Notes: generated by a model from the sequence alone, not told the origin. Shown: positions 15,336 to 41,230, counted from the first letter of the stretch. The stretch: DNA of 64,000 nt from an uncultured virus (IMG/VR IMGVR_UViG_2911005044_000001) (IMGVR_UViG_2911005044_000001), one strand, 5' to 3'. A program made the numbers and translations.

Positions 15336-15408
15336 TTGTTTTCATTGTTTGCCTGTTCAAAAAACAGGATGATACTTTTGTTTTGGTGTCCAAAAGTGTC
15401 TCTAAACA

Positions 15409-15579: not shown

Positions 15580-15731
15580 TCGTTTAATTATTGATTGATT
15601 TCGTTTTGAATTACTTGGCGAGGTCTCTAAACCTTGATTGACTGCGAAGTTGAGAATGAATGGTAGTTTTTCCGCTGTCGCGAAAGGGACTTTGGGACGG
15701 AGGAAGAAATAATTATATTGCTGATTGTAAT

Positions 15732-16697: not shown

Positions 16698-16698
16698 T

Positions 16699-17628
16699 CT
16701 AAATTGGACTACTCAACCCATCCTCGTGATAACGTAACTTTTCAGAAATCATTTTTACAATAGCCTCGTTCTTAGTTTTGTAAATGTTATTTCCATCAAA
16801 ATCCTGTTCGTTTAAAAGCATCTTTACTTTTCTGCTTTCTTCCTGATCGATGAACTTTTTACAAGCTCTTATAAATGCAGCACGACTGCAACCTTTAATG
16901 CGTTGCTCTCGCATATTCACGTACACAAAAAAACTCTTCTGGATTTTATATTCAAGCTCAGTAATCTTACCCATTGCAAAGGCATTAGAACATAATTCAT
17001 ACTGCTCATCTACGATAAGCTGACCTATGCGTACCATTTGATATTTAGGAATACGCTCTCTATAGCGAGTGACATCATCCACTTGATGATGTAAGCGCAA
17101 CCACGTACAGTTTTGCCATTCAGAGGTTGTGATTTTTGCTACAGATTGGTGTGTAAGCACAATATCAATCCCTTTATGACGCACTGTACAAAGTGCACCA
17201 ATCATAGACTGTCCTTTTGCACCTGTCATATAATGGTCAATATCGTCTAGGACTACGAGACCATTTTTATAGTGTTTCATAATCTTAGTAATGACTTCTT
17301 TCTTTTCGTCATTATCCATAGGCGAACCATCACTATTAAATGGTCTAATTCTGCGTGAAGATACTTTGGTAAGTGCTTTTAAATGATTTGGGCTTACGGT
17401 TCTGAATTGTGGGTAATCATCATCATTAGTGTCAAAAGCTAAAACTTTGCGACCTTTCTTTCCTATCACTAAATGATCCATCATATAGTGTTTGATCTCT
17501 TGTTTGTTGCGATAGGTTTTACCAACACCAGTTTCTCCACAAACCAGCATAATCATCGGTTGGCGCTCTAAATCTTCTTTCTTATAGCTTATAGGCTTAC
17601 GACCTCGATTAGATGTAGTTCCTGACAT
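16699..17628 (-). CDS. FtsK-HerA superfamily packaging ATPase (A32/PRD1 P9/Zot-like)
   Basis: Walker A GETGVGKT, Walker B LVVLDD, Arg-finger/sensor motif RHKGIDIVLTHQ. Confidence 0.75.
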   Translation of the reverse strand: MSGTTSNRGRKPISYKKEDLERQPMIMLVCGETGVGKTYRNKQEIKHYMMDHLVIGKKGRKVLAFDTNDDDYPQFRTVSPNHLKALTKVSSRRIRPFNSDGSPMDNDEKKEVITKIMKHYKNGLVVLDDIDHYMTGAKGQSMIGALCTVRHKGIDIVLTHQSVAKITTSEWQNCTWLRLHHQVDDVTRYRERIPKYQMVRIGQLIVDEQYELCSNAFAMGKITELEYKIQKSFFVYVNMREQRIKGCSRAAFIRACKKFIDQEESRKVKMLLNEQDFDGNNIYKTKNEAIVKMISEKLRYHEDGLSSPI

Positions 17629-18650
17629 TACGAATTGTTTTGTGGTTCTTCGGCAACATCTATGATGGGAATATCATCATCGACTTCTTCGACTTCTATA
17701 TCTTGAATGGTAGGTTCTGGTTTAATTTCTTTTTCTTTAAATGGCTTTTGTTCTGGTTGCGCTTTAACGCTGCGCTCTCCCTGCGGTCGTGAATCTCGCA
17801 CGCTCGATTTCGCGAAAGCGTAATCAGAACTATCTGTATCGTCCTTATTTTCATCTTCCTCCTTAATATCTTCAATTTCTGTTTCTCCTTTTTCCTGACG
17901 AACGATGTCCAGAATGCGATTTTCAAGTAGACTGTTTTCGGCACGTACTTCCATAACGACTTGTGCCTTTTTCATTAAAATAGAAATAACCGCACCCATT
18001 AATTGCTGTTCTGGCGTAAGCTTTTTAGCTTTCTTACGCAGGACTTGAGCGAGTAATGGCCTTAAGAGCGCTTGATCTTCTTTATCAAGCTTGATACGCT
18101 CAACATTTTTATCATTCTGCTGATCTACAACTTGAATGATTTCTTCAAACTCATAGAACTCTTGATGCTTTCTGATTTTTACGAAATAACCACCGCCAAC
18201 TGCAAGAACATTGTTAGACATTCCCAATATCGCATCGGCTGCTTGATTTGCTTGTGCGAGCGGTACTTCAAAATCTTGGTCGGTTACGGTTTCATCAGCT
18301 TCGGTATCAAATCCGTTTCCGTTAATTTCTTGTTCTGGAGCATCAAGTGGTTCTTGGGCTTTTTCCTTTTCGACCTTAGCTTCAACCTTAGTTCTAAAAT
18401 CGGTTTGGGTGTTTCCACTGCGTCCAGGTTCTAGTTCATCAAGGGTTTTATGCTCTTGTTCTGGTTTCCAAACGTTCCAGCTTTTTTGTTTTTCTTCATC
18501 GGCTTCAACAGGACGCTCGCCACCTATGTCTTTTTCAATTACAGGTTGGTTAAGTGGACTACTATCTTCGTTTTGAAGTTGTTCAAAATTGATTTCTTCT
18601 GGAGTTGCGGTAAGGGCATCTTGTACCTCTTGAGCGATTTTGTCTTGCAT
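17628..18650 (-). CDS. Acidic hypothetical protein coupled to the packaging ATPase
   Basis: Stop/start overlap at 17628; acidic termini, helical core ending PEQQLMGAVISILM. Confidence 0.6.
   Translation of the reverse strand: MQDKIAQEVQDALTATPEEINFEQLQNEDSSPLNQPVIEKDIGGERPVEADEEKQKSWNVWKPEQEHKTLDELEPGRSGNTQTDFRTKVEAKVEKEKAQEPLDAPEQEINGNGFDTEADETVTDQDFEVPLAQANQAADAILGMSNNVLAVGGGYFVKIRKHQEFYEFEEIIQVVDQQNDKNVERIKLDKEDQALLRPLLAQVLRKKAKKLTPEQQLMGAVISILMKKAQVVMEVRAENSLLENRILDIVRQEKGETEIEDIKEEDENKDDTDSSDYAFAKSSVRDSRPQGERSVKAQPEQKPFKEKEIKPEPTIQDIEVEEVDDDIPIIDVAEEPQNNS
17766..17810. repeat. 45-bp in-frame GC-rich insertion splitting a CGCTTTCGCGAAAGCG palindrome
   Basis: CGCTTT[aacgctgcgctctccctgcggtcgtgaatctcgcacgctcgattt]CGCGAAAGCG; TTT at both junctions. 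Confidence 0.65.
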
Positions 18651-18654
18651 AGGC

Positions 18655-19107
18655 TTAGTTCAATTTTGCGATAAAATTGATAATGTTGTTTTCGAGGATT
18701 TTGAATTTTTCTACAAAAGGCTTGTAGAATTGAGGGATGGAAAGAATCTCATCGCACTTGTGGTAATTGTATAGTATGGCACGTTTGGACTGGCTAAAGC
18801 TTTCGCCAATCTTTGCATAACTAGAATCTGTATATTTTTTGAGTAAATAATAACAGGACATACGAGCCTCACGATACTCTTGAACGCTGCTGGTGTAGAA
18901 GTTTTCTTCTTTCAAATCAAAGACTTCAATGCTTCGTGAAATAATAAAAACCAGAAGAAGTTTTACTTTCTCCTTGTCTTGAGTGGTAAGCTCTGTATTG
19001 CTGGTTAAACTATCAATAACCTCAATGGTTTTCTGAAGTCCAAATTTTCCAATTAAGGAATCTATACTCTGCTGTAAATCGTGATAATCGTGTGCTGTCT
19101 TTTTCAT
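18655..19107 (-). CDS. DnaA C-terminal/TrpR-like HTH DNA-binding protein
   Basis: EARMSCYYLLKKYTDSSYAKIGESF..SKRAILY resembles Bac_DnaA_C; likely start MKKTAH. Confidence 0.6.
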   Translation of the reverse strand: MKKTAHDYHDLQQSIDSLIGKFGLQKTIEVIDSLTSNTELTTQDKEKVKLLLVFIISRSIEVFDLKEENFYTSSVQEYREARMSCYYLLKKYTDSSYAKIGESFSQSKRAILYNYHKCDEILSIPQFYKPFVEKFKILENNIINFIAKLN

Positions 19108-19207
19108 TGGGCAAGTGCCGAATTGTTTGACAGGCAAACTACTAAAAGTTGTTTTTCAATTTATTTACAAAAAGTTTATAGAAGATTTACTTTGATGTAA
19201 AATCTTT

Positions 19208-23744: not shown

Positions 23745-24761
23745 TTAATATCCTTTTCTTCCATACTCCTTCACTACATCGATATGCTTATTATGCAATC
23801 TCAAATAGTTCTCTAACGAGTACTGAACACTTCCATTTTCTGAAGCCTCAAAGTGCTCTGGTAAGGGTTTGTATTTTTCTATGAGTTCATCATAGAGCTT
23901 ATCTAGTATTAAAAAGTAATCCATAACAAATTCATATCCTGAAATGTCTAATTCCAATTCAACTTGTTTCTGTCTGTAGGATATGATTGAATCTGTTTTC
24001 CAATTGTCTGGAAACTCATAATAAATGGAGCCGTAATGATACTTTTGGTTTTTGAAGAACCAAATCAATCTTTCTCTTTCCGTTTTGCAATTTTGATATT
24101 CAATAAGACTTTCAGTGGCCTGGTCTTGAACTTGAGACATCTCAAATACACGTTCTACTTGACTAGTTAAACTATAAGCATCGCTATATAAATTGTAGTC
24201 AAAACATTCAAATGGACCAAAACCGTTAATTGTCTTGCTTAAGTAATTGAAGTTGTCGTAATACCAATTCTTTAACTCATCTACTTTAATAGGCTCATCG
24301 ATCTCACTTATTTGATTCAACAACGCATCGTATTCCTTTTTTATAATGAGATACTCTGTGGTAGGTTTAAAGTCGTGGTATTCATCTTTGTTAAAACTAA
24401 AACCTAGGTCTATTGATTTTTCAAGCTCTGTAAAATTAGTAAGCTTATTGCATACGTAGATGTCATCTGCTGTTTCTCCATCTTTACTTTCAATAAATAA
24501 GTCTAAATAGTATCCAGAATTAGATAGAAAGGTCATTCCTTCACAGCCCTTATTGCAAGATTCACAAATGCCAAAAAACACATCGTCGAATGAATGACAA
24601 TCATCACGTTTAGCTTGCTTAAATTTCTTCTCTAATTTTTCAAGAAAAAGAGATTTAGACACATCTTGATAAGGCTTATCATCATCGAGTAGTTCTTTTA
24701 GAGAGGCTATATCGAAGTTTTTGATGGCATTAGTAATTTTGTTTATTGAATTAATCTTCAT
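23745..24761 (-). CDS. Hypothetical protein with Cys cluster (CESCNKGC)
   Basis: 338-aa ORF in operon. Confidence 0.55.
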   Translation of the reverse strand: MKINSINKITNAIKNFDIASLKELLDDDKPYQDVSKSLFLEKLEKKFKQAKRDDCHSFDDVFFGICESCNKGCEGMTFLSNSGYYLDLFIESKDGETADDIYVCNKLTNFTELEKSIDLGFSFNKDEYHDFKPTTEYLIIKKEYDALLNQISEIDEPIKVDELKNWYYDNFNYLSKTINGFGPFECFDYNLYSDAYSLTSQVERVFEMSQVQDQATESLIEYQNCKTERERLIWFFKNQKYHYGSIYYEFPDNWKTDSIISYRQKQVELELDISGYEFVMDYFLILDKLYDELIEKYKPLPEHFEASENGSVQYSLENYLRLHNKHIDVVKEYGRKGY

Positions 24762-25137
24762 TCTTTTCCTTCTTCTCGTAATTCTGTATTAATGAAGAAA
24801 TGAAAGCTCCACCAGCAGCAGTCGCCAACCAACCCCAAATACCAACACCTGTTCCTAAAGCCGCAATGCCAATTCCACCAGTTCCAAAGACGAATAAGCC
24901 TGTTATAGCACCTAAAAAAGCTCCAATAAAAAGCTTATTATTAGTGGATTGATCACTCCACATAATTCGCTTTATTTCTTTTGTTTTTTCCTTGGTCGTT
25001 AGATCTGAAGATTGAACGTCCTTCACTTTCTTCAAAATAGCCATCAATTTTTCCTTTTTTGAACTTGATAGTTTTGCGATGTAGTTAATTGCTTTTTGTA
25101 GATTAACTTGTAATTTATTTTCATTCATCTTTATCAA
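24751..25137 (-). CDS. Glycine-zipper membrane protein
   Basis: GAFLGAITGLFVFGTGGIGIAALGTGVG. Confidence 0.6.
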   Translation of the reverse strand: MIKMNENKLQVNLQKAINYIAKLSSSKKEKLMAILKKVKDVQSSDLTTKEKTKEIKRIMWSDQSTNNKLFIGAFLGAITGLFVFGTGGIGIAALGTGVGIWGWLATAAGGAFISSLIQNYEKKEKNED

Positions 25138-26683
25138 AGATTTTTAGAGCGTCTACTGCAGCGACTTTCAACCCACCTTTCTGTTTTTCGTATTCATCAA
25201 TATTTTTTAGACATTTTATAAGTACGTCTTTGGTTATTTGATTTTCATCAATTTTTGTGGACTTCAGTTCGTTAAGTATTTTAGATAAAAATGCCTTTCT
25301 TTTTTTTAAGTTGTTTTGAAATTCTTTGAAAGTGAATATGGAATCAGAAGTGTTATTTATTAAAGAAGTATTTGAAAATAAATCATTATTAACTTGACCT
25401 GGTTTTGCTTTAGTTTCAATCAACTCTTTTTCAGAACCATCATTAATTTTTGATTCAATATTTTTTACTGTATTTATTGGTTTACTTTCTACTTTAAGCT
25501 GAACTTGTATTGGCTGTTCAGTTTCTTCGTTGTAATTATTTTGATTAGGTATATTGTTTCTATTTTCACTTTCAGCCTCCTCTTTATTTGATTCACTATT
25601 TGCAAATACTTCATTACTAAATTCTTTTGTAACCTTTGGTTTCCAATCTAAATCCAAAGATTTTGTATTTTTCAACAACGGAGTACTTGAAAATGACTGT
25701 AACGATTTAGAGATTGTCTGAATAGAAAATGTATAACCAAGTATAAAGAGAACTTTTGAAGCTGATTCAGAATCATAATATTTCAATTCCAGAATATTCT
25801 CCTTAATAATTTCAATATTATAATGATTTTTTTCCATTAGTCTTTTTAGATAATAGAAATAGGTAAATAATAAGAATGCGCTTGGATACTTATCATTTTC
25901 AGATAAGGTATCTTTTAGCTTATTAAATCTTTTAAGCTCATCGTCATCTATAGTATTCTTATCAATATATTGAACTGCTTTAAATAGGCTCTTTTGGTTT
26001 ATTTCTGATTTTCTCTGAATTACGAAGTTGTAAAAAGCACTTTTGGTAATTTTTTCAACATCCTGTCCTAATTTTCTCATTCCTATACAGGCGGACTTTA
26101 TTAGAGCTTCAATATTTCCTTCTGGTATAAAGCTTGGCGTGGTATTAAAATCTACTAAGTGGGCTAGAGTTGAATCGTTCTTTCCTGGACTTTGATTATT
26201 TAATTGAAATAATGTTGCAGCTTTAAAATCACTTATAAAATCATCTTTTGGTACCTCAAGTTCATATATTGAGCAAAGCTCAGTACCTGCCTTATTTCTT
26301 AAAATATGGCTTCGGTAATTAGTAAATGATATGTAAACTGATGGATTGAGAGGTTCCGCTATTCTAAAATCGTTATTAAGCTTAGATGAAAGCAGCCTTG
26401 AACCAATATCTGATAAAGGTATAATAGACTTTATTCCTTTAAATTTTAATAACGGAGCATTGTCATAGTCTAAATTCCTGCTGTATTCGATTAGCAATAC
26501 CTCGTGCTCTTGCTCATAAATAGGAACTGAATTTTGTAAGAAGTTTACCTGTCTATCTTCAGACAGCTTTTCAAATTCGTAATATGATAAGTGAATGATT
26601 CTATCTGATGACGTTCTTAACCTATCATATTTAATTAGGTAATTTAATTCTGAACGAAATAGAACGATAATTATATTTTTCAT
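25121..26683 (-). CDS. Hypothetical protein (520 aa)
   Basis: Long ORF in operon; no recognised motif. Confidence 0.6.
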   Translation of the reverse strand: MKNIIIVLFRSELNYLIKYDRLRTSSDRIIHLSYYEFEKLSEDRQVNFLQNSVPIYEQEHEVLLIEYSRNLDYDNAPLLKFKGIKSIIPLSDIGSRLLSSKLNNDFRIAEPLNPSVYISFTNYRSHILRNKAGTELCSIYELEVPKDDFISDFKAATLFQLNNQSPGKNDSTLAHLVDFNTTPSFIPEGNIEALIKSACIGMRKLGQDVEKITKSAFYNFVIQRKSEINQKSLFKAVQYIDKNTIDDDELKRFNKLKDTLSENDKYPSAFLLFTYFYYLKRLMEKNHYNIEIIKENILELKYYDSESASKVLFILGYTFSIQTISKSLQSFSSTPLLKNTKSLDLDWKPKVTKEFSNEVFANSESNKEEAESENRNNIPNQNNYNEETEQPIQVQLKVESKPINTVKNIESKINDGSEKELIETKAKPGQVNNDLFSNTSLINNTSDSIFTFKEFQNNLKKRKAFLSKILNELKSTKIDENQITKDVLIKCLKNIDEYEKQKGGLKVAAVDALKIFDKDE

Positions 26684-26695
26684 TTGTTTTCTTTA

Positions 26696-27871
26696 TTAAA
26701 AAACGACTTCGTCGTTATCAGATTCTAAATTGTTTATTTCTCTTACCCTAGTGCTTAATAAAAACCTCTTAAACCCTGAATACATAGAACCAGTAAAGGT
26801 TATTAATAAATCTCTTTTAGCTCTAGATAAAGCAACAAGGATTACAGCGTTTTCATTATCCGCTTCTCCTAAATCAGTTTGAATACCAGGCAAAGCAACA
26901 GCATCAAAATCAAGTCCTTTAGATGAATGATAGGTAATCAAAACAATTTTGTTCTCAATATTAGCTCTCTCTAAAGATCCAGTACCATTACCTACGTACA
27001 TTAATGGAATATCTTGGTTATTCAAGTATGTATTCATAGCTTCAAAATTTCTACTTGACAAAGCATAATCTGGATACGTACCTTCAGACCACTTTTGTTT
27101 CCCTTCCAATTCTAATATGGTATCGACATACTTTATCATATCATTTTTCTTAAAAAACAATACCGCGTTAACTTCTCCAGATCTATCAATATTAATTTGC
27201 TTAGACTCGTTCCAAGAGAACTTTATTTCTTCCTTGTAGTTATTTGCTTTGAATAACCTTATATCAGAATCTTCTCTACCTATGTGAACCATATCTGCAA
27301 ATAGATTTGTGTAAACATTTTTTAAAACACCTATTACCGTTCTTGTTAATCGATAGATTGTGGTAGTCGTTCTCTCTACTGGATTCAGTTGTGCTACAAT
27401 TTCCTCTTTAGTAGCGGGCTTTTCATTAAAGTTTGGGACAGAAGAATAAATAGATTGTGCTGCATCACCAGCTATAATTAATTGATCGCATCCTTTTTTC
27501 ATTCTTTCTAAAAGAACAGTTGGTATATCTTGTATTTCATCACAAAATACTGCATCAAACTTTTCTCCTTTATAAAGGCGCTTATTGACATCATAGATTG
27601 TTATCACTGGAATCCGTTTTCCATTTAAAGCAGGAATTTGTCTCAAACCTGAGGCTAGTAAATCAATTAAGGCGTGTGTAAAAACAACTACTACAATACT
27701 GGCTTTAGGGTTTCTTATAACATAATCTGTTAAAGCGTGAAGTAGTACAATAGATTTGCCAGATCCGGCGTGACCTTGTATCCAAATAGGTTTCCCTTGT
27801 AAATCGTGTATTTCATCAATTATTTCTCTTTGCTCAGGACCTAACCTGGCTTCTTCTATCATCCACTGCAT
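26696..27871 (-). CDS. Compact SF1 (UvrD-like) helicase/ATPase
   Basis: GHAGSGKS, DEIQD, AGDAAQSIY, TYHSSKGLDFD, ALSRAK. Confidence 0.8.
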   Translation of the reverse strand: MQWMIEEARLGPEQREIIDEIHDLQGKPIWIQGHAGSGKSIVLLHALTDYVIRNPKASIVVVVFTHALIDLLASGLRQIPALNGKRIPVITIYDVNKRLYKGEKFDAVFCDEIQDIPTVLLERMKKGCDQLIIAGDAAQSIYSSVPNFNEKPATKEEIVAQLNPVERTTTTIYRLTRTVIGVLKNVYTNLFADMVHIGREDSDIRLFKANNYKEEIKFSWNESKQINIDRSGEVNAVLFFKKNDMIKYVDTILELEGKQKWSEGTYPDYALSSRNFEAMNTYLNNQDIPLMYVGNGTGSLERANIENKIVLITYHSSKGLDFDAVALPGIQTDLGEADNENAVILVALSRAKRDLLITFTGSMYSGFKRFLLSTRVREINNLESDNDEVVF

Positions 27872-27875
27872 ACTT

Positions 27876-30377
27876 TTATTGTTTGTTTATTTCTGGCTTT
27901 AATCTAATGATTGATTTGTCTGTAACTAAATCACAAATGATTCTTGATTCTTGATTTACTTTCAAGATAAATTTTAATGGGTTCGAGTTTATATGCTGTT
28001 GCCAATCAAATCGAACTTTTTCGTCAGTGACGTCAGAGTATAAGATAATTGAATATGTGCCAGCATCAATCATACTCTCATACTCCAAAGTAGGCAGCAC
28101 TTCACCTTTTTCAAATATTAGGGTATGGTTATCGTTTTTGTATATATAGATACCTCCATTAAGAACTGATTCAATAATTTGTTTTCCAAATGCATTGGAA
28201 ACAAAAGATTGGATTGCATTTCCGAACCCTACTTGTTCTTGGCTATTATTAGGCATAACTATTTTGTCTACCTCAAAATAATCAGCACATAGTGATCTCA
28301 AGTAAGGGTTTTTTGCTCCACCTCCAGATATAATGACATAGTTAAAATCATCTCTTGATAAATTAGCCTCGTTTACTGTTTTATCGATACTACTTTTAAA
28401 TCCCTTAAAATTTTCGTTTCCATTAAAATAATTAGTCATTACATCATTAAACTCTGAATAACTAATATCAATCGAATTGTAATTACCGTAATCACGAGTA
28501 TTACATTGCTTATTTATTTCTGATTTAGATAATTCAGGTAAAGCATAATGTACTTGAGCGTCCGTCCTAACCGATTTACAAAATTCAAGTTTTAAATCTT
28601 CACAATTTTTTGAAATAAAATCATCATTAATAACTAGACTATTGTCCTTCTCAAATAGCCTGTTAGCGATTAGTCTATTAATAAGATTACCACCCATATT
28701 ACTATTTCTGTAGATAGCTAAATTTTCCGCAATGACGTTGTCAGAGTCTTTAACTAATCGAATGGCGCAACAATCAACCGTTCCTGCACCAACATCAATT
28801 ACCAAAATATTTAGGTCATCCTCTAAATCTAACGCAAGATTTTCTTGATGGATGGTTCCTAAAAGAGAAGAAACAGGCTCTTCTATAAAAGCAAATGTTC
28901 CTTCTTCATAGCCTGCCTGTATAATATAGCTTTCAAGAAGTTCTTTTTCTTTTAATCCATAATTAGCTGGAGTGCTAAAAGAATAACGCTTTTCAAAAGG
29001 TAATTGTTTATCGTTTATAATTTTATCAATCTCAGCTTTCAATCTCTTTAAAAAGACAATTAGAGCATCAGCGGCATTTTTAATGGGAAACTCAGCGTGA
29101 TCATAGAGTTTTGAAGTTGGGTAAGCATAACTTTTCAATTCTATTAGATTCTCTTTGAAGCCATACCAGCCATCAGTGCCTAAAGTCAAATCGGCTCTTC
29201 TCTCATTAGCATATTTACCTAATAAAAATCGGTTGTTTATTATTCCAATGATCGAAGGAACTATGGTACTACTAAAGGCAATTCCTAAATGATCTTTTTG
29301 TTCAATTTCAAGCAATTCCACTTTTAGCTTGTCATCTTGAACATAAGCTATGGAGCATACAGAACTAGATGTTCCGAAGTCTATTCCAATAAATGAACGA
29401 TCTGTTAGATTTTGTATTGAGTCTTTTAAATTGTCTAAAGGACGGTATATAGCATTAATTCCTATTTTATTGACTTCTTGCTTCTCTTTTGGCAAATTCT
29501 TGTTCAAAAGCGAAAAGTCATATTTAAGATGTTTGCGAGGCCACAAACCATCTGTTTTATTTAATAAATTCTCTCTTATAATTTGAGAAGGAATATAATT
29601 AATTGAAGTAACTGCAGAAGCACTTCTGTTTCCAGAGGTAGTGTTTTTGTTAATGTCCGGAAATTTGGCTTCAACCGCCTTTTCTAACTGCGCTATTTGC
29701 GATCTCACACTAGTTGTTAAGTCAACCAATAGTAGCGACGAAGCGTTTGGGATAAAATTAAAAATATCAAGAATATTATTTTCTAAAACTTGATATTCAT
29801 TTTGAGCGATTTCATTTATGCAATTTTGAATTACAACTAAATCCGCGCTATCAAACAGCGTTCTATTTGCGCTTACAACATTTGAATCAACGAGATCAAA
29901 TTGATGACTATTCCAGTGCAATGAGACATCGTTAAACCTATTTAATTCTGGTAACAAAAATCCAGTTAAAGCAGAATGGCTATAATTCCAAGTACCGGCA
30001 TTAATATCTAGAATATCAATGTTGATGTTTTTAATATTAGGGCAATATTCAAGAATATATTTTACGGTTCCGTAGGCTTCAGACCCTGGACCTCCACCAA
30101 TAAAAACAGCAGAAAAATCTGCTTTAGATTTCATTAACTGCAAATCTTGCTCTAAAAGTATCTTATAAATTAATTGATAATAATGAGGCAAATAGGTGAT
30201 TAAATAAGCACTTTGAATATTCTGTTTTGCATAATCTACGTAAACAGGTGGCGGTTTTCTATAGGAAGCTCGTAACTGTCTAACGTCTGGCTTTAAAGAT
30301 TGTAAGTAATCCTTAATTTCTAGTTGCTCATCATTTAATTCATCTATGGCTTCCACAATTTTATTGTAAACACTCAT
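27876..30377 (-). CDS. Fusion of class I SAM methyltransferase-like domain and Hsp70/DnaK-like ATPase
   Basis: N: AYLITYLPHYY, FIGGGPGSE, LVVIQNCINE; C: GIDFGTS, EEPVS, VIDVGAGTVD, GGNLIN, SGGGAKNP. Confidence 0.75.
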   Translation of the reverse strand: MSVYNKIVEAIDELNDEQLEIKDYLQSLKPDVRQLRASYRKPPPVYVDYAKQNIQSAYLITYLPHYYQLIYKILLEQDLQLMKSKADFSAVFIGGGPGSEAYGTVKYILEYCPNIKNINIDILDINAGTWNYSHSALTGFLLPELNRFNDVSLHWNSHQFDLVDSNVVSANRTLFDSADLVVIQNCINEIAQNEYQVLENNILDIFNFIPNASSLLLVDLTTSVRSQIAQLEKAVEAKFPDINKNTTSGNRSASAVTSINYIPSQIIRENLLNKTDGLWPRKHLKYDFSLLNKNLPKEKQEVNKIGINAIYRPLDNLKDSIQNLTDRSFIGIDFGTSSSVCSIAYVQDDKLKVELLEIEQKDHLGIAFSSTIVPSIIGIINNRFLLGKYANERRADLTLGTDGWYGFKENLIELKSYAYPTSKLYDHAEFPIKNAADALIVFLKRLKAEIDKIINDKQLPFEKRYSFSTPANYGLKEKELLESYIIQAGYEEGTFAFIEEPVSSLLGTIHQENLALDLEDDLNILVIDVGAGTVDCCAIRLVKDSDNVIAENLAIYRNSNMGGNLINRLIANRLFEKDNSLVINDDFISKNCEDLKLEFCKSVRTDAQVHYALPELSKSEINKQCNTRDYGNYNSIDISYSEFNDVMTNYFNGNENFKGFKSSIDKTVNEANLSRDDFNYVIISGGGAKNPYLRSLCADYFEVDKIVMPNNSQEQVGFGNAIQSFVSNAFGKQIIESVLNGGIYIYKNDNHTLIFEKGEVLPTLEYESMIDAGTYSIILYSDVTDEKVRFDWQQHINSNPLKFILKVNQESRIICDLVTDKSIIRLKPEINKQ

Positions 30378-30997
30378 TAGCTTACAATAGTTCTAAACGT
30401 TAGATTTATCCTTGAATCAGTTATTCTTTTCTGAACAGGAACTTGATGCAGCCAATTGTGCTGTAAAGCACCCTTCATAATGACTAAAGAACCTGGAAGC
30501 AACTCTAATTGAAGTTTCTGATTAGGATCTGATTTGTGTTTTAAGTCAAAACGTCTAGTAGCACCTAGGCTTACTGATGCAATCAATGGGTTTATACCTA
30601 GGCCTTTTTCGTCATCTGCGTGCCAGCTTACTTTATCACTGCCGTCTCTGTATAAGTTAAGCAGTACACTATTAAAATCTGACTCGGGCAAAAAACTTTC
30701 TATAACCCTTTTAATACCCAGCAATTCTTTAGTCCAAGGTTCTGGATTACATAAAATTCCTGAGTATTTATAGTTAAAACCTTCATAACCGTACCAAGCT
30801 GTTTTGCGCGGCACAGGATAGGTTTTACCATACATTTTTATCTCTTCTTGTCGCCAGTTAATAGTCTCCACAAATTTTTTGAAATAGCTATTAGCTTTGT
30901 CAAGAGGTATAAAATTTTCCATATACCAAATCTCGCCATCCAATAAATCTATTTTCTTGAACTCTCGTTCTTTTGGCGTCTGATTAAATAAATCCAT
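30377..30997 (-). CDS. alkB: AlkB-family 2OG-Fe(II) dioxygenase (ALKBH2/3-like)
   Basis: PRKTAWYG, LLNLYRDGSDKVSWHADDE, H.VP, RINLTFR. Confidence 0.9.
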   Translation of the reverse strand: MDLFNQTPKEREFKKIDLLDGEIWYMENFIPLDKANSYFKKFVETINWRQEEIKMYGKTYPVPRKTAWYGYEGFNYKYSGILCNPEPWTKELLGIKRVIESFLPESDFNSVLLNLYRDGSDKVSWHADDEKGLGINPLIASVSLGATRRFDLKHKSDPNQKLQLELLPGSLVIMKGALQHNWLHQVPVQKRITDSRINLTFRTIVS

Positions 30998-31117
30998 AAA
31001 GCAATACTAGGTTAATTGGTATATCTAAAATTTAAGAGAACAAAGTAATAAATATTCCACACATATTCCTTAAATTGTCCAATATTTGTCAAGTCTTTTA
31101 ATGAAAACTTTACTAAG

Positions 31118-31396
31118 ATGATAGGTGAACACATACGAACACTGAGAGAAGCTAATGATATCCTATTGCGGCAGCTGGCTGCAAAGTTAGAGATGGATCA
31201 AGCAATGTTGAGCAAGATGGAACGTGGCGAGCGTTCCTTTAGAAGAGAAGATATAGATGCACTTGCAAAAATCTTTAAACAGCCTAAGAAAGAACTCCTT
31301 ACGCTATGGCTAGCAGACAAGATTTTAAAAACTACAGAAAACCAACGCTACAAAAAAGAAGCATTACAACTGGCTATTGACCAGTTTGATAATTAA
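31118..31396 (+). CDS. XRE-family HTH regulator (controller-like) upstream of mod
   Basis: LRQLAAKLEMDQAMLSKMERGER. Confidence 0.85.
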   Translation: MIGEHIRTLREANDILLRQLAAKLEMDQAMLSKMERGERSFRREDIDALAKIFKQPKKELLTLWLADKILKTTENQRYKKEALQLAIDQFDN

Positions 31397-31405
31397 GATA
31401 CAGGT

Positions 31406-33259
31406 ATGAGTGAAAAACTAGATATGACAAGCCCAGACCTTGTTAACGCCAATTTTGAAAAACTAGCAGAACTATTCCCTAACTGTGTGACCGAAAGTGC
31501 TACAGGAAAAGCCATAGACTTTGACCTTTTAAAACAAGAGTTAAGTCACGACATCATAGAAGGTAACAAAGAACGCTACCGCCTAGAATGGCCAGGTAAA
31601 CGTGAAGCCATTGTAACCGCAAACTTACCTACTACAAAAACCCTAAGACCTATACGTGAGGACTCTGTAGACTTTGACAATACAGAAAACCTGTATATAG
31701 AAGGTGATAATCTGGAAGTATTAAAGCTGCTGCAAGAAAGCTACTTGGGTAAGATTAAAATGATTTACATAGATCCACCATATAACACAGGTAAGGACTT
31801 TGTCTATAAAGATAATTTTACGGGCGATAAAACCGAGCACGAAGAAGAAAGTGGGCAACGTGATGAGTATGGAAGACGTCTTGTACCCAATCCAGAAAGC
31901 TCAGGACGATACCATAGTGACTGGCTCACAATGATGTACCCAAGATTAAAGCTTGCGCGAAATTTACTAACCGATGATGGCGTGATTTTCATTTCCATTG
32001 ATGATAATGAGGTTGATAACCTTAGAAAACTTTGTGATGAAACTTTCGGAAATGTGAACTTCATAGGGCAATTAATTTGGAAAAGTCGTCAAAACAAGGA
32101 TAATAGAAATATTAATGGTCTTTCTTCAGATCACGAATATATCCTTGTCTATTCTAGAAGTAGTGATGTTAGAGTTTTCAAGGGAACAGAAAGAAAAACA
32201 GAACAATATAAGAATCCTGATAAAGATCCTAGAGGAAAATGGGTTAGCGGAAATATGGTTGGACTATTACCTGAAGCTCAACGTCCGAATTGTCATTATG
32301 AATTATTGAATCCTGAGACAGGGATTATTTATGATAAGCCTAAAATGGGTTGGCGATATGATCAGAAAACAATGTCTAGGCTAATAGAAGAAAAAAGAAT
32401 TTTATGGCCTGAAAATGTTGATGGTAGACCTAGACGTAAAGTTTTTCTAGCCGATGTTAGTAAAGAATTACCAAATTTCACATCGATGATTGGCGAAGGA
32501 ATTTATACACGAAATGGCACTCAGGATATTGATGAGCTTTTTGGTGACAAATATTTTGATTTTCCAAAGCCTAAAGATTTGATTGAAATTTTAATATCTC
32601 AAACCACCGAAAATTCAGAAAATCATATTGTACTAGATTTTTTTGCAGGATCTTCTACGTCGGCACATTCTGTAGTTTCAATCAATTCAAATGATAACGG
32701 TAATCGTAAGTTTATTCAAGTCCAATTACCTGAGGCAATAGATACAAAGGGTAAAGCATACTCGGAAGGATATCGTAGTATTTGTGATATTGGGAAAGAG
32801 CGCATCCGCAGAGCAGCCAAACAGATTAAAGAAAAAACCAAAGCAAATATAGATTACGGCTTTAGAGTCTACAGACTTGATGAGAGTAATATGCAAGATG
32901 TGTATTATAAACCACAGGAGTATGACCAAGGGCAGCTGGATGCGTTCTCAGATAATGTAAAACCAGACCGCAGCTCAGACGACTTACTGGTACAAATACT
33001 ACTAGATTGGGGCTTGCCTTTATCCTTACCTATTGAGCAAGTGACCATTGAAGGCAAGCACGTATTTAAAGTAGCGAGCAACTCACTCTATGCGTGTTTT
33101 GATACTGGTATAGATGAAGCTTTCGCGAAAGCGGTAGCCCAAGAAAAACCATTGCGCATTGTATTTAAAGACAGTGGCTTTAAAAATGATACCGCCAAAG
33201 AAAATGTAAAACAACTACTCAAACAATTGAGTCCAGATACCGAAATGAAAGTATTATAA
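31406..33259 (+). CDS. mod: Type III restriction-modification methyltransferase subunit
   Basis: IEGDNLEVLK, IYIDPPYNTG, HSDWLTMMYPRL, FPKP, LDFFAGS. Confidence 0.95.
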   Translation: MSEKLDMTSPDLVNANFEKLAELFPNCVTESATGKAIDFDLLKQELSHDIIEGNKERYRLEWPGKREAIVTANLPTTKTLRPIREDSVDFDNTENLYIEGDNLEVLKLLQESYLGKIKMIYIDPPYNTGKDFVYKDNFTGDKTEHEEESGQRDEYGRRLVPNPESSGRYHSDWLTMMYPRLKLARNLLTDDGVIFISIDDNEVDNLRKLCDETFGNVNFIGQLIWKSRQNKDNRNINGLSSDHEYILVYSRSSDVRVFKGTERKTEQYKNPDKDPRGKWVSGNMVGLLPEAQRPNCHYELLNPETGIIYDKPKMGWRYDQKTMSRLIEEKRILWPENVDGRPRRKVFLADVSKELPNFTSMIGEGIYTRNGTQDIDELFGDKYFDFPKPKDLIEILISQTTENSENHIVLDFFAGSSTSAHSVVSINSNDNGNRKFIQVQLPEAIDTKGKAYSEGYRSICDIGKERIRRAAKQIKEKTKANIDYGFRVYRLDESNMQDVYYKPQEYDQGQLDAFSDNVKPDRSSDDLLVQILLDWGLPLSLPIEQVTIEGKHVFKVASNSLYACFDTGIDEAFAKAVAQEKPLRIVFKDSGFKNDTAKENVKQLLKQLSPDTEMKVL

Positions 33260-35026
33260 ATGGCGTTACCTATAAACATAAACGACTTAGTACACGGGCA
33301 AACCGTAGAATGGGAACGCCTAGAGTTTAAACAAGGCTGGAATCCAGAAGAGATTGTACATACTATTTGCGCATTTGCAAATGATATTAATAATTGGGGT
33401 GGCGGTTACATTATAGTCGGTATTACAGAAAATGCAGGACAGCCTGTGTTGCCACCTGCAGGTTTACAGCAAAATCAGTTAGACCAGATACAAGGTGAGA
33501 TTGTGAGGTTAGCCCATCAGCTACAACCCAATTATTTCCCTATAAGTCAACCGTATGTTATAGACGGGCAGCACATTTTAGTATTATGGTGTCCTGCGGG
33601 AGATAACAGACCTTACACGGCACCATCTACTCAAGGTGGTAAGGCGCAACGCCATAGGTATGTACGCTCAGGTTCGCGCAGTATTGTCGCAAGAGGTGTA
33701 CTAGATGTACAACTTACAGAGCTTGCGGCGCGTATTCCTTTTGATGATCGTATTAATAATCAAGCGAGTATAGATAATCTGGATCTTGCAACCATACAAG
33801 GGTATTTACAAGAAGTTAAGAGTGACTTATATGCAGAGAGCACAAGTATGTCACTTACAGAAGTCGCGCGTGCAATGCGCATTGCAAAAGGTCCAGACGA
33901 AGCGATACGTCCTGTTAATGTGGGATTGCTTTTCTTCTCTAAAACACCTGAAGCTTTTTTCCCGAGAACCCAAATAGAAATTGTGGTTCATAAGGATGAT
34001 ACAGGCAAGTCTTTTAAAGAACATATTTTTAATGGACCATTGCACGTACAGTTACGTGACGCGCTATCTTTTATAAAAAACAACATTTTAAGTGAGCAAA
34101 TTGTAAAACATAAAGACAAAGCTGAGGCAGATCGTTTTGAGAATTACCCATATACCGCTATTGAAGAAGCGTTATCTAATGCGGTCTATCATAAAAGCTA
34201 TGAGATAGGTAGTCCTATCGAGGTACAGATATGGCAAGACAAAATAGAAATATTAAGCTATCCTGCGCCAGTACCACCTGTTACTAATAAAGTACTAGAA
34301 ACTAAAAAACGTATAGTTGCCAGAGATTATAGAAATAGACGCATAGGTGATTTTCTAAAAGAGTTAAGACTTACTGAAGGTAGAGGAACTGGTTTTCCTT
34401 CTATATATAATGCAATGGAAGAAAATGGCAGTCCTGCACCTACGTTTGAAACAGATGATGAAAGTTATGTGCTTGTAACACTTCCTGCACGAGTAAATGA
34501 CCAAGCTCGTGACCAAGAACAAACTCCTACTACTAATGAAGCTACTAACCAAGTTAAAGTTCCTGTTTTCAATACAATAGAAGATATTATTGCTTTTAGT
34601 AACCAAGTTAGTAACCAAGTTAGTAACCAAGCTAAAGGTGAAGCTACTGTCCAAGTTAATGACCAAGCTAGTGTCGGAGCTAGTGTCGGAGCTCAAGCTA
34701 GTGATAGTGAGGATTCTATTGATTTAAGAAATCTTACAGACGGAGCTCGGGACGGAGCTCGAGACGGAGCTCTTAAAATACTTAATGACCAAGTTCATAC
34801 AGAAGTTGTTGCGATACTTACTGCAGTAAAGCAATGGACTAAAAGAACCGAATTATTTGATAGCATAGGCTTAACGAATCGAACAGGGAATCGTAAAAAA
34901 TATTTAGACCCATTATTTGAGTTTGGATGGATACAAATAGAGTTCCCGGATAATATGACACATCCTAACCAACGCTATAAAATAACCGCAGCAGGAAAAC
35001 GAATTTTAGACCTTATAACAGCATAA
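33260..35026 (+). CDS. Schlafen/AlbA_2 + RecG-C (HATPase_c_4)-like + winged-HTH protein inserted between mod and res
   Basis: EWERLEFK..ICAFAN..GGGYIIVG; EALSNAVYH; EGRGTGF; C-terminal PNQRYKIT. Confidence 0.85.
   Translation: MALPININDLVHGQTVEWERLEFKQGWNPEEIVHTICAFANDINNWGGGYIIVGITENAGQPVLPPAGLQQNQLDQIQGEIVRLAHQLQPNYFPISQPYVIDGQHILVLWCPAGDNRPYTAPSTQGGKAQRHRYVRSGSRSIVARGVLDVQLTELAARIPFDDRINNQASIDNLDLATIQGYLQEVKSDLYAESTSMSLTEVARAMRIAKGPDEAIRPVNVGLLFFSKTPEAFFPRTQIEIVVHKDDTGKSFKEHIFNGPLHVQLRDALSFIKNNILSEQIVKHKDKAEADRFENYPYTAIEEALSNAVYHKSYEIGSPIEVQIWQDKIEILSYPAPVPPVTNKVLETKKRIVARDYRNRRIGDFLKELRLTEGRGTGFPSIYNAMEENGSPAPTFETDDESYVLVTLPARVNDQARDQEQTPTTNEATNQVKVPVFNTIEDIIAFSNQVSNQVSNQAKGEATVQVNDQASVGASVGAQASDSEDSIDLRNLTDGARDGARDGALKILNDQVHTEVVAILTAVKQWTKRTELFDSIGLTNRTGNRKKYLDPLFEFGWIQIEFPDNMTHPNQRYKITAAGKRILDLITA
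34495..34771 (+). repeat. In-frame 12-bp tandem repeats in the linker of the AlbA protein
   Basis: TAGTAACCAAGT x~3 (NQVS), AGTGTCGGAGCT x2, GACGGAGCTCG(G/A) x~3 (DGAR). Confidence 0.8.
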
Positions 35027-38000
35027 TGAAATTACAATTTAAAGAACAACAGTTTCAGGTAAACGCTGTAAAAGCAGTGGTAGATTGTTTTGAAGGTCAA
35101 GCTCTCAAGACAAATACATTTACATTAGAAAAAAGTAAGGAGCTCCTGCGCAAGGCAAAACAAGCCAGTAGTACAGAAATGACACTGCAGTTAGAGTCAG
35201 AACTGGATGAAGCCATAGGCTATCGTAACAGCACTATACAAATTACAGAATCGCAGATGCTTAAAAACATTAATGCGGTACAGCAACGTAATGAGTTGCT
35301 AGAAAGTGAGCAGATAGAACGACCTAAAAAAGTAAAATTAGGGTACAATCTTACTATAGAGATGGAGACAGGTACTGGGAAAACTTACACCTACATACGC
35401 ACAATGTATGAGCTTCACGCAAAATATGGCTGGAGTAAGTTTATAGTCATAGTACCTAGTATTGCCATACGAGAAGGCGTTTACAAATCTTTTGAGGTTA
35501 CTCAAGAACACTTTCAAGAGAAGTTCGGCCATAAAATAAAGCCATTCATTTACAACTCTAGTCGTCCCCAAGATATAGAAACCTTTGCGTCAGATAATCG
35601 CATAAGCGTTATGATTATTAATACCCAAGCATTTAATGCGCGTGGTAAAGATGCAAGACGTATTTATCAAGAGCTGGATGATTTCGGAACCAGAAAGCCT
35701 ATCGAGATTATAGCGCAAACTAATCCTATACTCATCATAGACGAGCCACAATCTGTAGATGGTGTGCGCACGTTAGAGAGTATGCAGGATTTTAATCCGC
35801 TGTTTACCTTGAGGTATTCTGCGACTCATAAGGTGGAGTATAATAAAGTATATCGCTTAGATGCGCTAGATGCATACCAGAAAAAACTGGTAAAGAAAAT
35901 TCAGGTAAAAGGAATCAACTTAAAAGGCTCTACAGGAACTACTGGATATATCTATGTAGAACAAATCTCATTGAGTAATTCTAAACCGCCTGTAGCACTC
36001 GTAGAATATGAACAACGCAGTGGTACAGCAGTAAAAAGAGTGCGTAAAAAATTAGAAAAAGGGGCCAACTTATATGAGCTCTCTGGAGATATGCCACAGT
36101 ATAAAAACTGTGTCATTCAAGAAGTAGACGGTTATTTTAATAAGATTGTAGTAAATGGAGAAGATATTTATGCTGGAGACGCTGTAGGCGATCTGGACGA
36201 AAAAGATTTTAGACGTATTCAAATAAGAGAAACCATTTACTCGCACTTACAAAAGGAGAAAGCCCTTTTTGGGAGTGGCATAAAAGTATTGTCACTGTTC
36301 TTTATAGATTCTGTAGACAAATACCGTGTCTATGATGATGAAGGCGAGCAGCTTTTAGGAGAATATGCTCAAATCTTTGAAGAAGAATATAATAATGCGC
36401 GTAGTGAGTTTTTAGATCTTTTTAATCAGGAATACAACGATTATTTAAAAGACACCAATCCTAGTGCAGTTCATAAAGGTTATATGCCAGGAACCTTTGG
36501 TGCTTATCTTAAACGAGATAATGCTGAGGATGTACACGATGGCTATTTCTCTATTGATAAAAAGAAAAAGTTTGTAGATCCTACGGTAAAACGTGGCAAG
36601 GAAGACTCAGATGATATTTCGGCATACGATCTTATAATGAAAGACAAAGAGCGCCTGCTTAGTTTTGAAGAACCTACACGTTTTTTATTCTCGCATTCTG
36701 CTTTAAAGGAAGGATGGGATAACCCTAATGTATTTCAAATTTGTGCATTAAAACATAGTGATGCCACAATAAGACGTCGTCAAGAAGTAGGACGTGGTAT
36801 GCGTTTATGCGTTAATAAAAATGGAATACGTCAAGATTTTGATACCGTGGGCGAGCAAGTACACGATATCAATAAATTAACCGTAATCGCATCAGAGAGT
36901 TATGAAGCTTTCGCGAAAGGGTTACAATCAGAAATTGCAGCAACTTTAAAAGGAAGACCACAAAAAGCCGAAGTGGAATACTTCCTAGGTAAAGTGGTGA
37001 AAAATGAAAAAGGAGATGAACATAGAATAGATGATTTAGAAGCAAAACAACTCAATAAATTTCTTTACAAGAATGACATTCTTGATGACGACGATAAAAT
37101 CACTAAGGAAGGACGAGAACTTATAGAACAAGGTAAAGTCCCATTGCCTGAAGCGTTAGAAAGCTTTCGCGAAAGCGTAACACAATTATTAAAAGCAGTC
37201 TATACAGGCGAGGCTTTAATGCCCGAAAACGACAGAGAAACTATTGTGGTGCGAACCAATAAGAACTTTAAGAAAAAAGAATTCCAGGAACTGTGGAACA
37301 AAATTAATCTCAAAACTATTTACGAGGTTCAATTTAATAGTGAGAAGCTCATTACAGATAGCACTATTAAAATTAATGCAGACTTACATATCGCAGACCG
37401 CATTTACCAAGTTAAGACAGGAGAACTAGAAGACGGCTCTATGGCCGATATGAAAGAAGGAACTTTGTTTAAGGAAATTAATAGCGAGAATAATCGAATT
37501 AAAACAAATATTTATACGGACACAGTTTATGACATTGTGGGTGAAATAGTAAACGCTACAAATCTTACTAGAAAAACAGTTGTAGCCATTCTAAAATCTA
37601 TAAAACAAGAAAAATTTGTGCTGGTTAGAAAGAATCCAGAAGAGTTTATCGCAAAATGTGGGAAGCTCATAAATGAGGTGAAAGCAAGTATGATTATCAA
37701 TAATATCGTCTATCATAAAACCGAAGAGCGCCACGATTCTAAAACAGTATTTACTAACGATAAGTACAGTATGCGTCAGTCAGATCCACTTACTAAGCAT
37801 ATCTACGATTATCTAACTACAGATTCTGGTGTAGAAACACGATTTGCAGCTGCGCTAGAAAATAGCACTGAAGTTACTGTGTATGCAAAATTACCCAAGA
37901 GCTTTTACATCACAACGCCAGTAGCAAACTACAGTCCAGACTGGGCTATCGTTTTTGATAAGGAAAAAGTACGTGAGATATATTTTGTTGCAGAAACAAA

Positions 38001-38151
38001 AGGATCAGATTCAGACCAAGATTTAAGGGAGATTGAACGCTTAAAAATTCATTGTGCGAAGGTACATTTTAATGAAATAAGTGACAAAGAAGTGACTTTT
38101 GATAGAGTGAGTAGCTATGATAAATTGTTAGAAATTATAGAATTAAGGTAG
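35026..38151 (+). CDS. res: Type III restriction endonuclease subunit
   Basis: EMETGTGKT, IIDEPQ, RYSATH, EGWDNPNVFQ, QEVGRGMR, YSPDW...VAETKG. Confidence 0.95.
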   Translation: MKLQFKEQQFQVNAVKAVVDCFEGQALKTNTFTLEKSKELLRKAKQASSTEMTLQLESELDEAIGYRNSTIQITESQMLKNINAVQQRNELLESEQIERPKKVKLGYNLTIEMETGTGKTYTYIRTMYELHAKYGWSKFIVIVPSIAIREGVYKSFEVTQEHFQEKFGHKIKPFIYNSSRPQDIETFASDNRISVMIINTQAFNARGKDARRIYQELDDFGTRKPIEIIAQTNPILIIDEPQSVDGVRTLESMQDFNPLFTLRYSATHKVEYNKVYRLDALDAYQKKLVKKIQVKGINLKGSTGTTGYIYVEQISLSNSKPPVALVEYEQRSGTAVKRVRKKLEKGANLYELSGDMPQYKNCVIQEVDGYFNKIVVNGEDIYAGDAVGDLDEKDFRRIQIRETIYSHLQKEKALFGSGIKVLSLFFIDSVDKYRVYDDEGEQLLGEYAQIFEEEYNNARSEFLDLFNQEYNDYLKDTNPSAVHKGYMPGTFGAYLKRDNAEDVHDGYFSIDKKKKFVDPTVKRGKEDSDDISAYDLIMKDKERLLSFEEPTRFLFSHSALKEGWDNPNVFQICALKHSDATIRRRQEVGRGMRLCVNKNGIRQDFDTVGEQVHDINKLTVIASESYEAFAKGLQSEIAATLKGRPQKAEVEYFLGKVVKNEKGDEHRIDDLEAKQLNKFLYKNDILDDDDKITKEGRELIEQGKVPLPEALESFRESVTQLLKAVYTGEALMPENDRETIVVRTNKNFKKKEFQELWNKINLKTIYEVQFNSEKLITDSTIKINADLHIADRIYQVKTGELEDGSMADMKEGTLFKEINSENNRIKTNIYTDTVYDIVGEIVNATNLTRKTVVAILKSIKQEKFVLVRKNPEEFIAKCGKLINEVKASMIINNIVYHKTEERHDSKTVFTNDKYSMRQSDPLTKHIYDYLTTDSGVETRFAAALENSTEVTVYAKLPKSFYITTPVANYSPDWAIVFDKEKVREIYFVAETKGSDSDQDLREIERLKIHCAKVHFNEISDKEVTFDRVSSYDKLLEIIELR

Positions 38152-38610: not shown

Positions 38611-38616
38611 TAACCT

Positions 38617-41227: not shown

Positions 41228-41230
41228 TTT

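Follow-up and report, generated by a model that had tools for sequence, protein, structure and literature searches.

A four-gene cassette on the minus strand of a 64,000-nucleotide stretch from an uncultured virus (IMG/VR IMGVR_UViG_2911005044_000001; this whole stretch is called the window below) is a mobile unit of Bacteroidota defence islands that is gained or lost as a whole. Its genes, at 25121-30997, encode an AlkB-type dioxygenase, a methyltransferase fused to an Hsp70, a superfamily 1 (SF1) helicase and a 520-amino acid (aa) protein; they keep a fixed order, carry conserved catalytic motifs and lie in a defence context. The cassette is undescribed as far as searched, and it is probably a conflict system. 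The preferred reading of its action is an anti-phage system of the writer-eraser kind: methyl groups that block pairing would be written on single-stranded nucleic acid by the methyltransferase and removed by AlkB; this reading is held tentatively, as slightly likelier to be wrong than right. Labels of homologues suggest a flavobacterial host.

30377..30997, minus strand: AlkB gene (core gene 1), 206 aa
27876..30377, minus strand: methyltransferase-Hsp70 fusion (core gene 2), 833 aa
26696..27871, minus strand: SF1 helicase/ATPase (core gene 3), 391 aa
25121..26683, minus strand: 520-aa protein with no known family (core gene 4)

A preliminary description of the window had proposed a six-gene defence operon at 23745..30997, with a Gly-zipper (Gly-rich) gene and a Cys-cluster gene (Cys338) after these four. 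The six open reading frames, their coordinates, strand and tight spacing were all reproduced, with successive gaps from AlkB to Cys338 of -1, 4, 12, -17 and -11 bp. Its domain calls also held: Pfam recovers AlkB (PF13532, 2OG-FeII_Oxy_2, E 4.5e-33), HSP70 (E 2.3e-8) and UvrD/SF1, and structure gives the methyltransferase fold. The conserved unit, however, is the first four genes, not six. An alignment of 43 fusion sequences led to loci fetched from 15 genomes and 28 metagenomes. The fusion is full-length in 32 of them. All 32 have the helicase gene next, 31 have AlkB upstream (the exception, L034, has 212 bp upstream only) and 30 have the 520-aa gene after the helicase gene, the contigs of L036 and L041 ending first. 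These full-length fusions form 27 groups at 90% and 8 groups at 50% identity, and the named carriers belong to Flavobacteriaceae, Weeksellaceae, Cyclobacteriaceae, Chitinophagaceae and Crocinitomicaceae. At one locus, L021:1-10594, reading frames are broken up over AlkB and the upstream genes, probably by assembly frameshifts.

Gain or loss as a unit is seen in contig joints that skip exactly the four genes, 25105->31060 in run X3 and 25117->31060 in run X1, which come from two studies. The Gly-rich gene is retained in this cassette-less allele. Sequencing depth in run X1 is about 24 outside the core as opposed to 1-5 across most of it, and in runs X10 and X12 the cassette is present together with the downstream genes. 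The cassette is also rare: none of 36 genomes of the same genus has the fusion, none of 400 from the family has the 520-aa protein, and one of 400 from the phylum has the methyltransferase domain; relatives of the fusion or methyltransferase appeared neither in a viral contig collection nor among 50,697 phage records.

The genes that follow the core in the window are these:

24751..25137, minus strand: Gly-rich protein gene, 128 aa (an ATG at 25128 would give 125 aa)
23745..24761, minus strand: Cys338 gene, 338 aa
19469..23736, minus strand: pair of a 525-aa DUF6361/ZacA-like gene (weak match) and an 897-aa phospholipase D (PLD)/ZacB-like gene, directly downstream in the same run

Of the 24 loci with at least 1.4 kb of downstream sequence, 3 have the Gly-rich gene and 6 have the Cys gene; the PLD pair is in none of them. 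In other genomes of the family the Gly-rich gene was found in 2 of 250 (G596 and G647) and the Cys gene in 6 of 250, and in each case flanks of 1.5 kb held no core gene. Both are accessory island genes outside the core: locus counts, core-free occurrences and joints that skip only four genes together rule out a six-gene unit. The role of membrane effector assigned earlier to the Gly-zipper protein falls with it, given its presence in 3 of 24 loci, its occurrence without the core and its persistence in the cassette-less allele. A single hydrophobic segment (KD19 1.89) is present in the Gly-rich protein, and C66, C69, C73 and C104 of Cys338, kept in most homologues, likely form a metal site. Although the six genes are tightly coupled as claimed, the run does not stop at 23745: the 525-aa gene, the 897-aa gene and one of 85 aa carry it on to 19208, at spacings of 8, -4 and 3 bp. 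The 525-aa gene matches Pfam DUF6361 (E 0.0025) and PADLOC ZacA (E 2.5e-4), and the 897-aa gene matches PLDc_2 (E 2e-10) and PADLOC ZacB (E 1.5e-13); the two overlap by 4 bp, and Pfam and PADLOC scans gave no adjacent ZacC-like helicase. They are a separate module, whose inclusion in the system is ruled out by their absence from all 24 core loci.

On its other side the core faces a divergent block:

30998..31117: intergenic region between the divergent genes (the allele without the cassette joins at 31060)
31118..38151, plus strand: helix-turn-helix (HTH) regulator, Type III Mod, AlbA_2/HATPase gene and Type III Res (Pfam and PADLOC scans)

The run had been described as divergent from a Type III restriction-modification (R-M) locus in an AT-rich island. 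Mod and Res do lie divergent, but they come after the nearest divergent gene, a 92-aa HTH gene starting at 31118. GC content is lower, although only mildly (32.1% in the region vs 34.6% in the genome, standard deviation 1.8; 4.8% of 628 same-sized windows lie at or below 31.8%). A promoter scan, not tuned to Bacteroidota promoters, was uninformative, with 43 sites vs 53.6 expected. The HTH/Type III R-M block lies likewise upstream of the core in L007 and L022.

Defence genes recur around the cassette elsewhere. Homologues of defence genes were found in 20 of the 24 core loci, or 11 of 24 without self-queries, vs 3 of 207 windows of its own genome, a rough contrast because the queries were drawn from the loci themselves, which overstates the loci and understates the background. 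Neighbour scans, which covered 105 of 170 representatives by Pfam and 42 locus proteins by PADLOC, identified Type I and Type III R-M, type IIG with SNF2 and DruE-like helicases, Zorya II, CBASS, DRT2, a retron-like reverse transcriptase, MmeI/McrB, GmrSD, AbiH and MADS-like genes. In 6 loci a type IIG methyltransferase gene flanks the core on one side and a DruE-like helicase gene on the other. The gap between these two genes acts as an insertion hotspot (L010, L011, L014, L018, L039 and L043), and L018 holds Zorya II as well as the cassette. No defence neighbour was seen in L009, L023 or L025, and L016 has toxin-antitoxin genes only. Genes for a relaxase, coupling protein or integrase lie near L007, L017 and L033. 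The earlier proposal of an undescribed defence system survives insofar as the genes are undescribed, conserved and situated in defence islands, as four genes rather than six.

By sequence, the AlkB is of the ALKBH2/3 type. Its best PDB matches are ALKBH3 (E 7.5e-50) and ALKBH2 (E 3e-45), with E. coli AlkB at E 5e-4, and the HxD...H iron triad and two 2-oxoglutarate (2OG) arginines (H126, D128, H184, R196 and R202) are invariant in 24 homologues. It is the most conserved core gene (median identity 74% vs 39% for the fusion). In a quick tree, the Bacteroidota cassette AlkBs form a clade of their own (23 rows, SH-aLRT 96), and among the best 150 matches listed the ordinary AlkBs of the family are at most 53% identical to the cassette protein. 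A further AlkB is encoded elsewhere in its own genome (42% identity), each of five carrier genomes tested has at least one further AlkB, and no methyltransferase lies within 1.5 kb of an ordinary AlkB at any of 30 loci. Because it has its own branch, its hosts have another AlkB and ordinary loci lack the methyltransferase, the cassette AlkB is, as judged from sequence comparison, a dedicated extra copy. It is predicted to act as eraser, or antitoxin. The linked pair of demethylase and methyltransferase proposed earlier is adjacent in 41 of the 43 fetched fusion loci and in all four cyanobacterial plasmid loci inspected.

The fusion comprises a class I S-adenosylmethionine (SAM) methyltransferase domain (residues ~1-295), an Hsp70 nucleotide-binding domain (~325-730) and a beta-rich C-terminal domain (~735-833), in an AlphaFold model with pLDDT 89.6 and pTM 0.87. 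Assignment of the N-terminal domain draws on a Rossmann-like modelled fold, a Gly-rich motif I (GGGPGSE at 94) and an acidic D124 after strand 2; G94-G96, D124 and Q184-E189 are invariant in the 43 fusion homologues. The best structural matches, 8csp_7 (Z 20.8), 6sg9_F1 (Z 20.4) and 8d8j_0 (Z 18.0), are chains of mitoribosome assembly intermediates, which we take to be METTL17, mt-SAF1 and Rsm22. The methyltransferase profile found no solved structure by sequence, and Foldseek with the whole fusion gave Hsp70s only. No DNA-methyltransferase Pfam family (N6/N4 or C5) was matched by 22 methyltransferase domain sequences. In the rows listed, PF11312 (Methyltransf_34), presumably the family that includes yeast Bmt6, scores below its curated cut-off of 26 bits, with 12.4 bits for the window domain and 17.5 for P0205; homologue P0358 carries a precomputed PF11312 label, and among the ESM Atlas neighbours of the methyltransferase (score 0.97) some have PF11312 in 14-39% of members. 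Yeast Bmt6 makes 3-methyluridine, which blocks Watson-Crick pairing (PMC3950682). The fusion is predicted to be a gated writer, or toxin.

Standalone relatives show that the minimal form of the system is methyltransferase plus AlkB. AlkB is adjacent in 6 of 8 standalone methyltransferase loci (L047, L048, L052, L053, L054 and L113; L047 and L048 look identical), and two-gene loci have no helicase or 520-aa homologue. Such modules were located at L052:6301-8847, L053:5342-6882, L054:6350-7873, L113:5986-7584 and in L047. A plasmid search returned 8 records with a methyltransferase homologue, 6 of them Synechocystis, and AlkB lies directly upstream in the 3 inspected (Planktothrix p1, a Picosynechococcus plasmid and pSYSA). 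The Picosynechococcus pair sits within a DUF1156/DUF499 locus and the pSYSA pair adjoins a CRISPR array. On a Nostoc plasmid, AlkB instead comes immediately after a more distant homologue. From gene order, the pSYSA AlkB would be slr7097, which raised survival of M13 treated with methyl methanesulfonate (MMS) 8-fold and that of MS2 7-fold (PMC3265494). That phage-survival assay shows demethylation of 1-methyladenine and 3-methylcytosine for this homologue; for the cassette AlkB the activity is a prediction.

Other partners and fusions of the methyltransferase family were also observed. DUF1848, presumably a spore-photoproduct-lyase-like protein, recurs beside the family with or without AlkB (L049:8968-11649, L055:6766-9818, L052:7909-8847 and L028:8322-9353) and may be an alternative eraser. 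L049 lies inside a BREX locus and has two methyltransferases plus DUF1848; L055 lies beside Type I R-M with a related helicase. Among 40 longer methyltransferase fusions, HSP70 is present in 39, PF00575 in 1 and a reverse transcriptase in none. The homologues P0332, P0328 and P0360 are fused to TBP-TOTE, pentapeptide repeats or PF00575.

The Hsp70 part has an actin-fold nucleotide-binding domain with phosphate, connect and adenosine motifs. D333, K408, E500, D528, T533, D535, E593, K596 and G685-G687 are invariant in the 43 fusion homologues and presumably correspond to DnaK catalytic residues. The beta-rich C-terminal domain is present and the helical lid absent: the model ends in strands at residue 833, and the substrate-binding regions of 3d2e and 5e84 align to residue 831-832. 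A canonical DnaK chaperone was rejected on the missing lid and on a score of 33 bits vs an NCBIfam cut-off of 822. Past the fusions, a profile search returns many Hsp70-like proteins of 600-1150 aa, and 54 of the 150 matches listed were scanned for N-terminal domains. These include HEPN_Swt1 (8), NERD (6), EAD11 (3), DuOB (2), TIR (1) and a kinase (1). Many of the related proteins end in tetratricopeptide repeats (TPRs), and the fusion studied here has no TPR. As related Hsp70s hold TIR, HEPN, NERD or kinase domains at the same N-terminal place, comparison of domain order puts the methyltransferase in the effector slot of this group. Members P0208-P0312 form a large atypical group with swappable N-terminal domains, often C-terminal TPRs and an effector-switch-sensor layout, of which no description was found in the literature searched.

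By its sequence, the helicase is a minimal, UvrD-like SF1 enzyme. Pfam assigns Viral_helicase1 (E 6e-11), UvrD_C and UvrD-helicase, UvrD/PcrA is matched in the PDB (E 2e-11), and the SF1 motifs at 33, 111, 135, 173, 313 and 346, kept in 23 rows, all fall within 391 residues. The 520-aa protein is predicted to be a sensor or scaffold. Its model (pLDDT 80.1) has an alpha/beta N-terminus (1-120), a helical region (120-335), a disordered stretch (352-448) and a small helical domain (445-520). Its 58 members have no common Pfam family, and searches gave no PDB sequence match, no usable ESM Atlas match and none in BFVD. For residues 1-126, six listed VIA rows are DarT, Tpt1 or CteC (weak; Z 4.0-4.8, rmsd 3.4-5.1, 86-108 aligned), and Foldseek of the N-terminus returns ADP-ribosyltransferase folds including CC0527 (prob 0.72-0.82, weak E 0.5-0.9), all at scores below the tool's trust level. 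A comparison by hhalign with 7 DarT sequences gave Probab 0.26, no better than controls, and no conserved Glu in register aligned with the DarT catalytic position. Going by the model, residues 1-120 are possibly a divergent ADP-ribosyltransferase-like fold; a non-catalytic binding domain is possible. An ADP-ribosylglycohydrolase in the helical middle was rejected, with weak Z of 3.8-4.2 and no backing from profile comparison. Two homologues (L023:4572-6290 and P0186) contain a TerB domain (best E 5.7e-6).

In the preferred writer-eraser reading, the methyltransferase would be the toxic effector because it fills the slot of TIR, HEPN, NERD and kinase domains and is accompanied by an enzyme of direct reversal even where the other genes are missing. 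The mark would be N3-methyl-U/T/C or N1-methyl-A, a lesion class proposed because ALKBH2/3 enzymes reverse it, and RNA is a slightly likelier target than DNA. In uninfected cells AlkB would erase the marks. The Hsp70 ATP cycle would gate the methyltransferase upon binding of a trigger, for instance a phage protein. More speculatively, the 520-aa protein might stand in, as sensor or scaffold, for the TPR tail that related Hsp70s have, and single-stranded substrate might be exposed by the helicase. Translation or replication would then stall in the infected cell.

Several observations weigh against this reading. Toxicity, methylation and a role against phages are all predictions from genes and models. 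The closest folds of the methyltransferase are mitoribosome assembly factors, and factors of the METTL17/Rsm22 type may not need catalysis. PF11312 matches 11 of 22 domain members with a best E of 0.0053, and the link to Bmt6 is thin. Two of the 8 standalone loci (L049 and L055) lack AlkB and have DUF1848 in its place. An ordinary AlkB of the same type occurs in 325 of 400 family genomes, and a second copy need not be an antitoxin; nor do the cyanobacterial partner AlkBs join the Bacteroidota cassette AlkBs with support. The slr7097 protein failed to complement in a chromosomal mutagenesis assay (PMC3265494). Four of the 24 loci had no defence homologue in the count above. Finally, on their short side the empty-site joints have 30 and 34 letters of support, and they are absent from runs X2, X4, X10 and X12.

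There are other explanations. One, close to the modification-sensing or editing system of the preliminary description, makes AlkB the attacker or sensor that strips or oxidises methylated bases in phage DNA or RNA, self being marked by the methyltransferase and the helicase and 520-aa protein acting in restriction. The frequent position of the cassette beside or within R-M and type IIG/helicase loci, and an AlkB that is the most conserved component and a clade apart, would fit. This explanation is nevertheless rather improbable: Pfam, PADLOC and NCBIfam scans detect no nuclease in the core, the N6/N4 and C5 families are missing among the 22 domain sequences, the two-gene form dispenses with both presumed restriction partners, and ALKBH2/3 enzymes favour N1/N3 lesions, not R-M marks. 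Alternatively, the methyltransferase, chaperoned by Hsp70, may do no harm and serve as an Rsm22/METTL17-like RNA modifier or as a factor in ribosome assembly, with AlkB (or DUF1848) and the helicase repairing damage from stress or from neighbouring defence systems. The mitoribosomal folds agree with this, as does the resemblance of both partners to repair enzymes (AlkB by PDB matches, DUF1848 as a presumed spore-photoproduct-lyase-like protein), and slr7097 repairs MMS damage (PMC3265494). A rare, mobile, defence-linked cassette in hosts that already have AlkB, with its methyltransferase in the effector slot of an Hsp70 group that bears TIR, HEPN and NERD, makes a repair role decidedly doubtful.

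An addiction (toxin-antitoxin) module with the same writer-eraser chemistry, which stabilises plasmids and integrated elements and has no anti-phage role, would suit the two-gene form on cyanobacterial plasmids and the mobility genes near L007, L017 and L033. It is very unlikely for the cassette, since the ATPase switch, helicase and sensor-like protein go beyond what addiction requires and the cassette is inserted within other defence operons. Least probable is a protein target, whereby the methyltransferase modifies a phage or host protein captured by the Hsp70 domain and AlkB reverses the mark; it is favoured by the retained beta-rich domain, which matches the substrate-binding region of Hsp70 in alignments with 3d2e and 5e84, but the nearest folds act on RNA, the AlkB is of the nucleic-acid ALKBH2/3 type, the core includes a helicase, and standalone forms lack Hsp70.

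The writer-eraser system, if such it is, has parallels among known systems without belonging to any of them. The four-gene combination has no model in PADLOC, NCBIfam or Pfam, and PADLOC yields single-domain partial matches only. Nor is the combination described in the literature searched, which took in few subscription papers and no supplements of large candidate screens. The cassette is not a member of DarTG, UG25/35, CoCoNuT or Gabija. By analogy it is predicted to work like DarTG, with which it would share a writer-eraser logic on single-stranded nucleic acid and a weak resemblance of the 520-aa N-terminus to the DarT fold. It differs from DarTG in having a SAM methyltransferase to write and a 2OG dioxygenase to erase, with Hsp70 and helicase added; DarT PF14487 had no match in G000, and no DarG macrodomain or NADAR gene was matched by Pfam, NCBIfam or PADLOC in the nine genes of the run. 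UG25 and UG35 have an N-terminal methyltransferase fused to a reverse transcriptase and are partnered by DUF1848 (UG25) or a UvrD-like helicase (UG35) (PMC9226505). The likeness lies in a methyltransferase fused to a second enzyme with a helicase or DUF1848 partner: the cassette helicase partially matches PADLOC RTasHel (E 2.2e-12), which fits the UvrD-like partner of UG35, and neighbouring DUF1848 genes match RTasDUF1848. In contrast to UG25/UG35, the core has no RVT domain and has Hsp70 and AlkB. No PADLOC UG model was matched by the 22 methyltransferase members at E 0.1, and a search of the supplement text (PMC9226505 and its preprint) for a methylase link gave nothing.

Type III CoCoNuTs include an Hsp70-fused McrB whose Hsp70 motifs are called degenerate (PMC11090510). 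In the cassette, by contrast, these motifs are invariant and the core lacks McrB GTPase, McrC/DUF2357 and HEPN; Pfam, PADLOC and NCBIfam found no McrB-like GTPase or McrC/DUF2357 in the run. The single-domain PADLOC matches to PDC-M61B (Hsp70-like, E 1e-7), CARF_2OG (E 1e-50 over the AlkB part) and GajB (E 5e-16) are partial, without matches to PDC-M61A, a CARF domain or GajA, and no GajA OLD nuclease was matched among the helicase neighbours. Rsm22/METTL17 and Bmt6 resemble the methyltransferase in fold (Z 18-21) or by weak PF11312 matches, but they are eukaryotic ribosome factors whereas this methyltransferase is bacterial, mobile, Hsp70-fused and paired with a demethylase. Human ALKBH2 and ALKBH3 and Synechocystis slr7097 belong to the same subfamily as the cassette AlkB and have the same catalytic residues; they were studied as stand-alone repair enzymes, and the portion of PMC3265494 consulted does not mention the neighbouring methyltransferase. 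If the locus name given by gene order is right, slr7097 lies upstream of and adjoins a homologue of the cassette methyltransferase.

Elsewhere in the window, the Type III R-M genes are followed at 38155-45112 by a GIY-YIG-like gene, an SMC-like ATPase (LmuB-like), a PLD-SNF2 helicase (C3a139, E 6e-121) and DUF4391. The island splits a long minus-strand run (3104-19137 and 45920-63641) that looks like an integrated virus-like element. This run includes an A32/Zot-like ATPase (16699-17628), endolysin- and amidase-like genes, many small hydrophobic-tail proteins, a Strawberry-notch-like helicase (54050-58309) and an N6 methyltransferase (58724-61468), and our impression is that a 303-aa gene at 14424-15335 might encode a capsid protein. 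A low-GC 345-aa gene of no known family (15660-16697, plus strand) opposes the surrounding run, and at 1-3100 a PLD-domain gene overlaps a sigma54-type AAA gene.

A broader proposal, bolder and on balance unlikely, is that the cassette represents a new class of immunity with alkylation damage as its weapon: a methyltransferase toxin would write N1/N3-methyl groups on RNA or single-stranded DNA, AlkB would be the antitoxin, and the four-gene form would be switched by an Hsp70 from an unrecognised "effector-Hsp70-TPR" receptor family. With its TIR, HEPN, NERD and kinase variants, that layout is analogous to NLR/STAND proteins. If the writer-eraser reading is true, anti-phage systems of this kind would gain a new chemistry, with base methylation as the toxic lesion and AlkB as the antidote, and bacteria would have an enzyme for N1/N3 methylation of nucleic acids. 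The extra AlkB of some bacteria and plasmids, including the already cloned slr7097 of Synechocystis, would be explained, and Hsp70 ATPases would emerge as switches of exchangeable immune effectors. The central toxin-antitoxin claim has its simplest setting in the two-gene form on plasmids.

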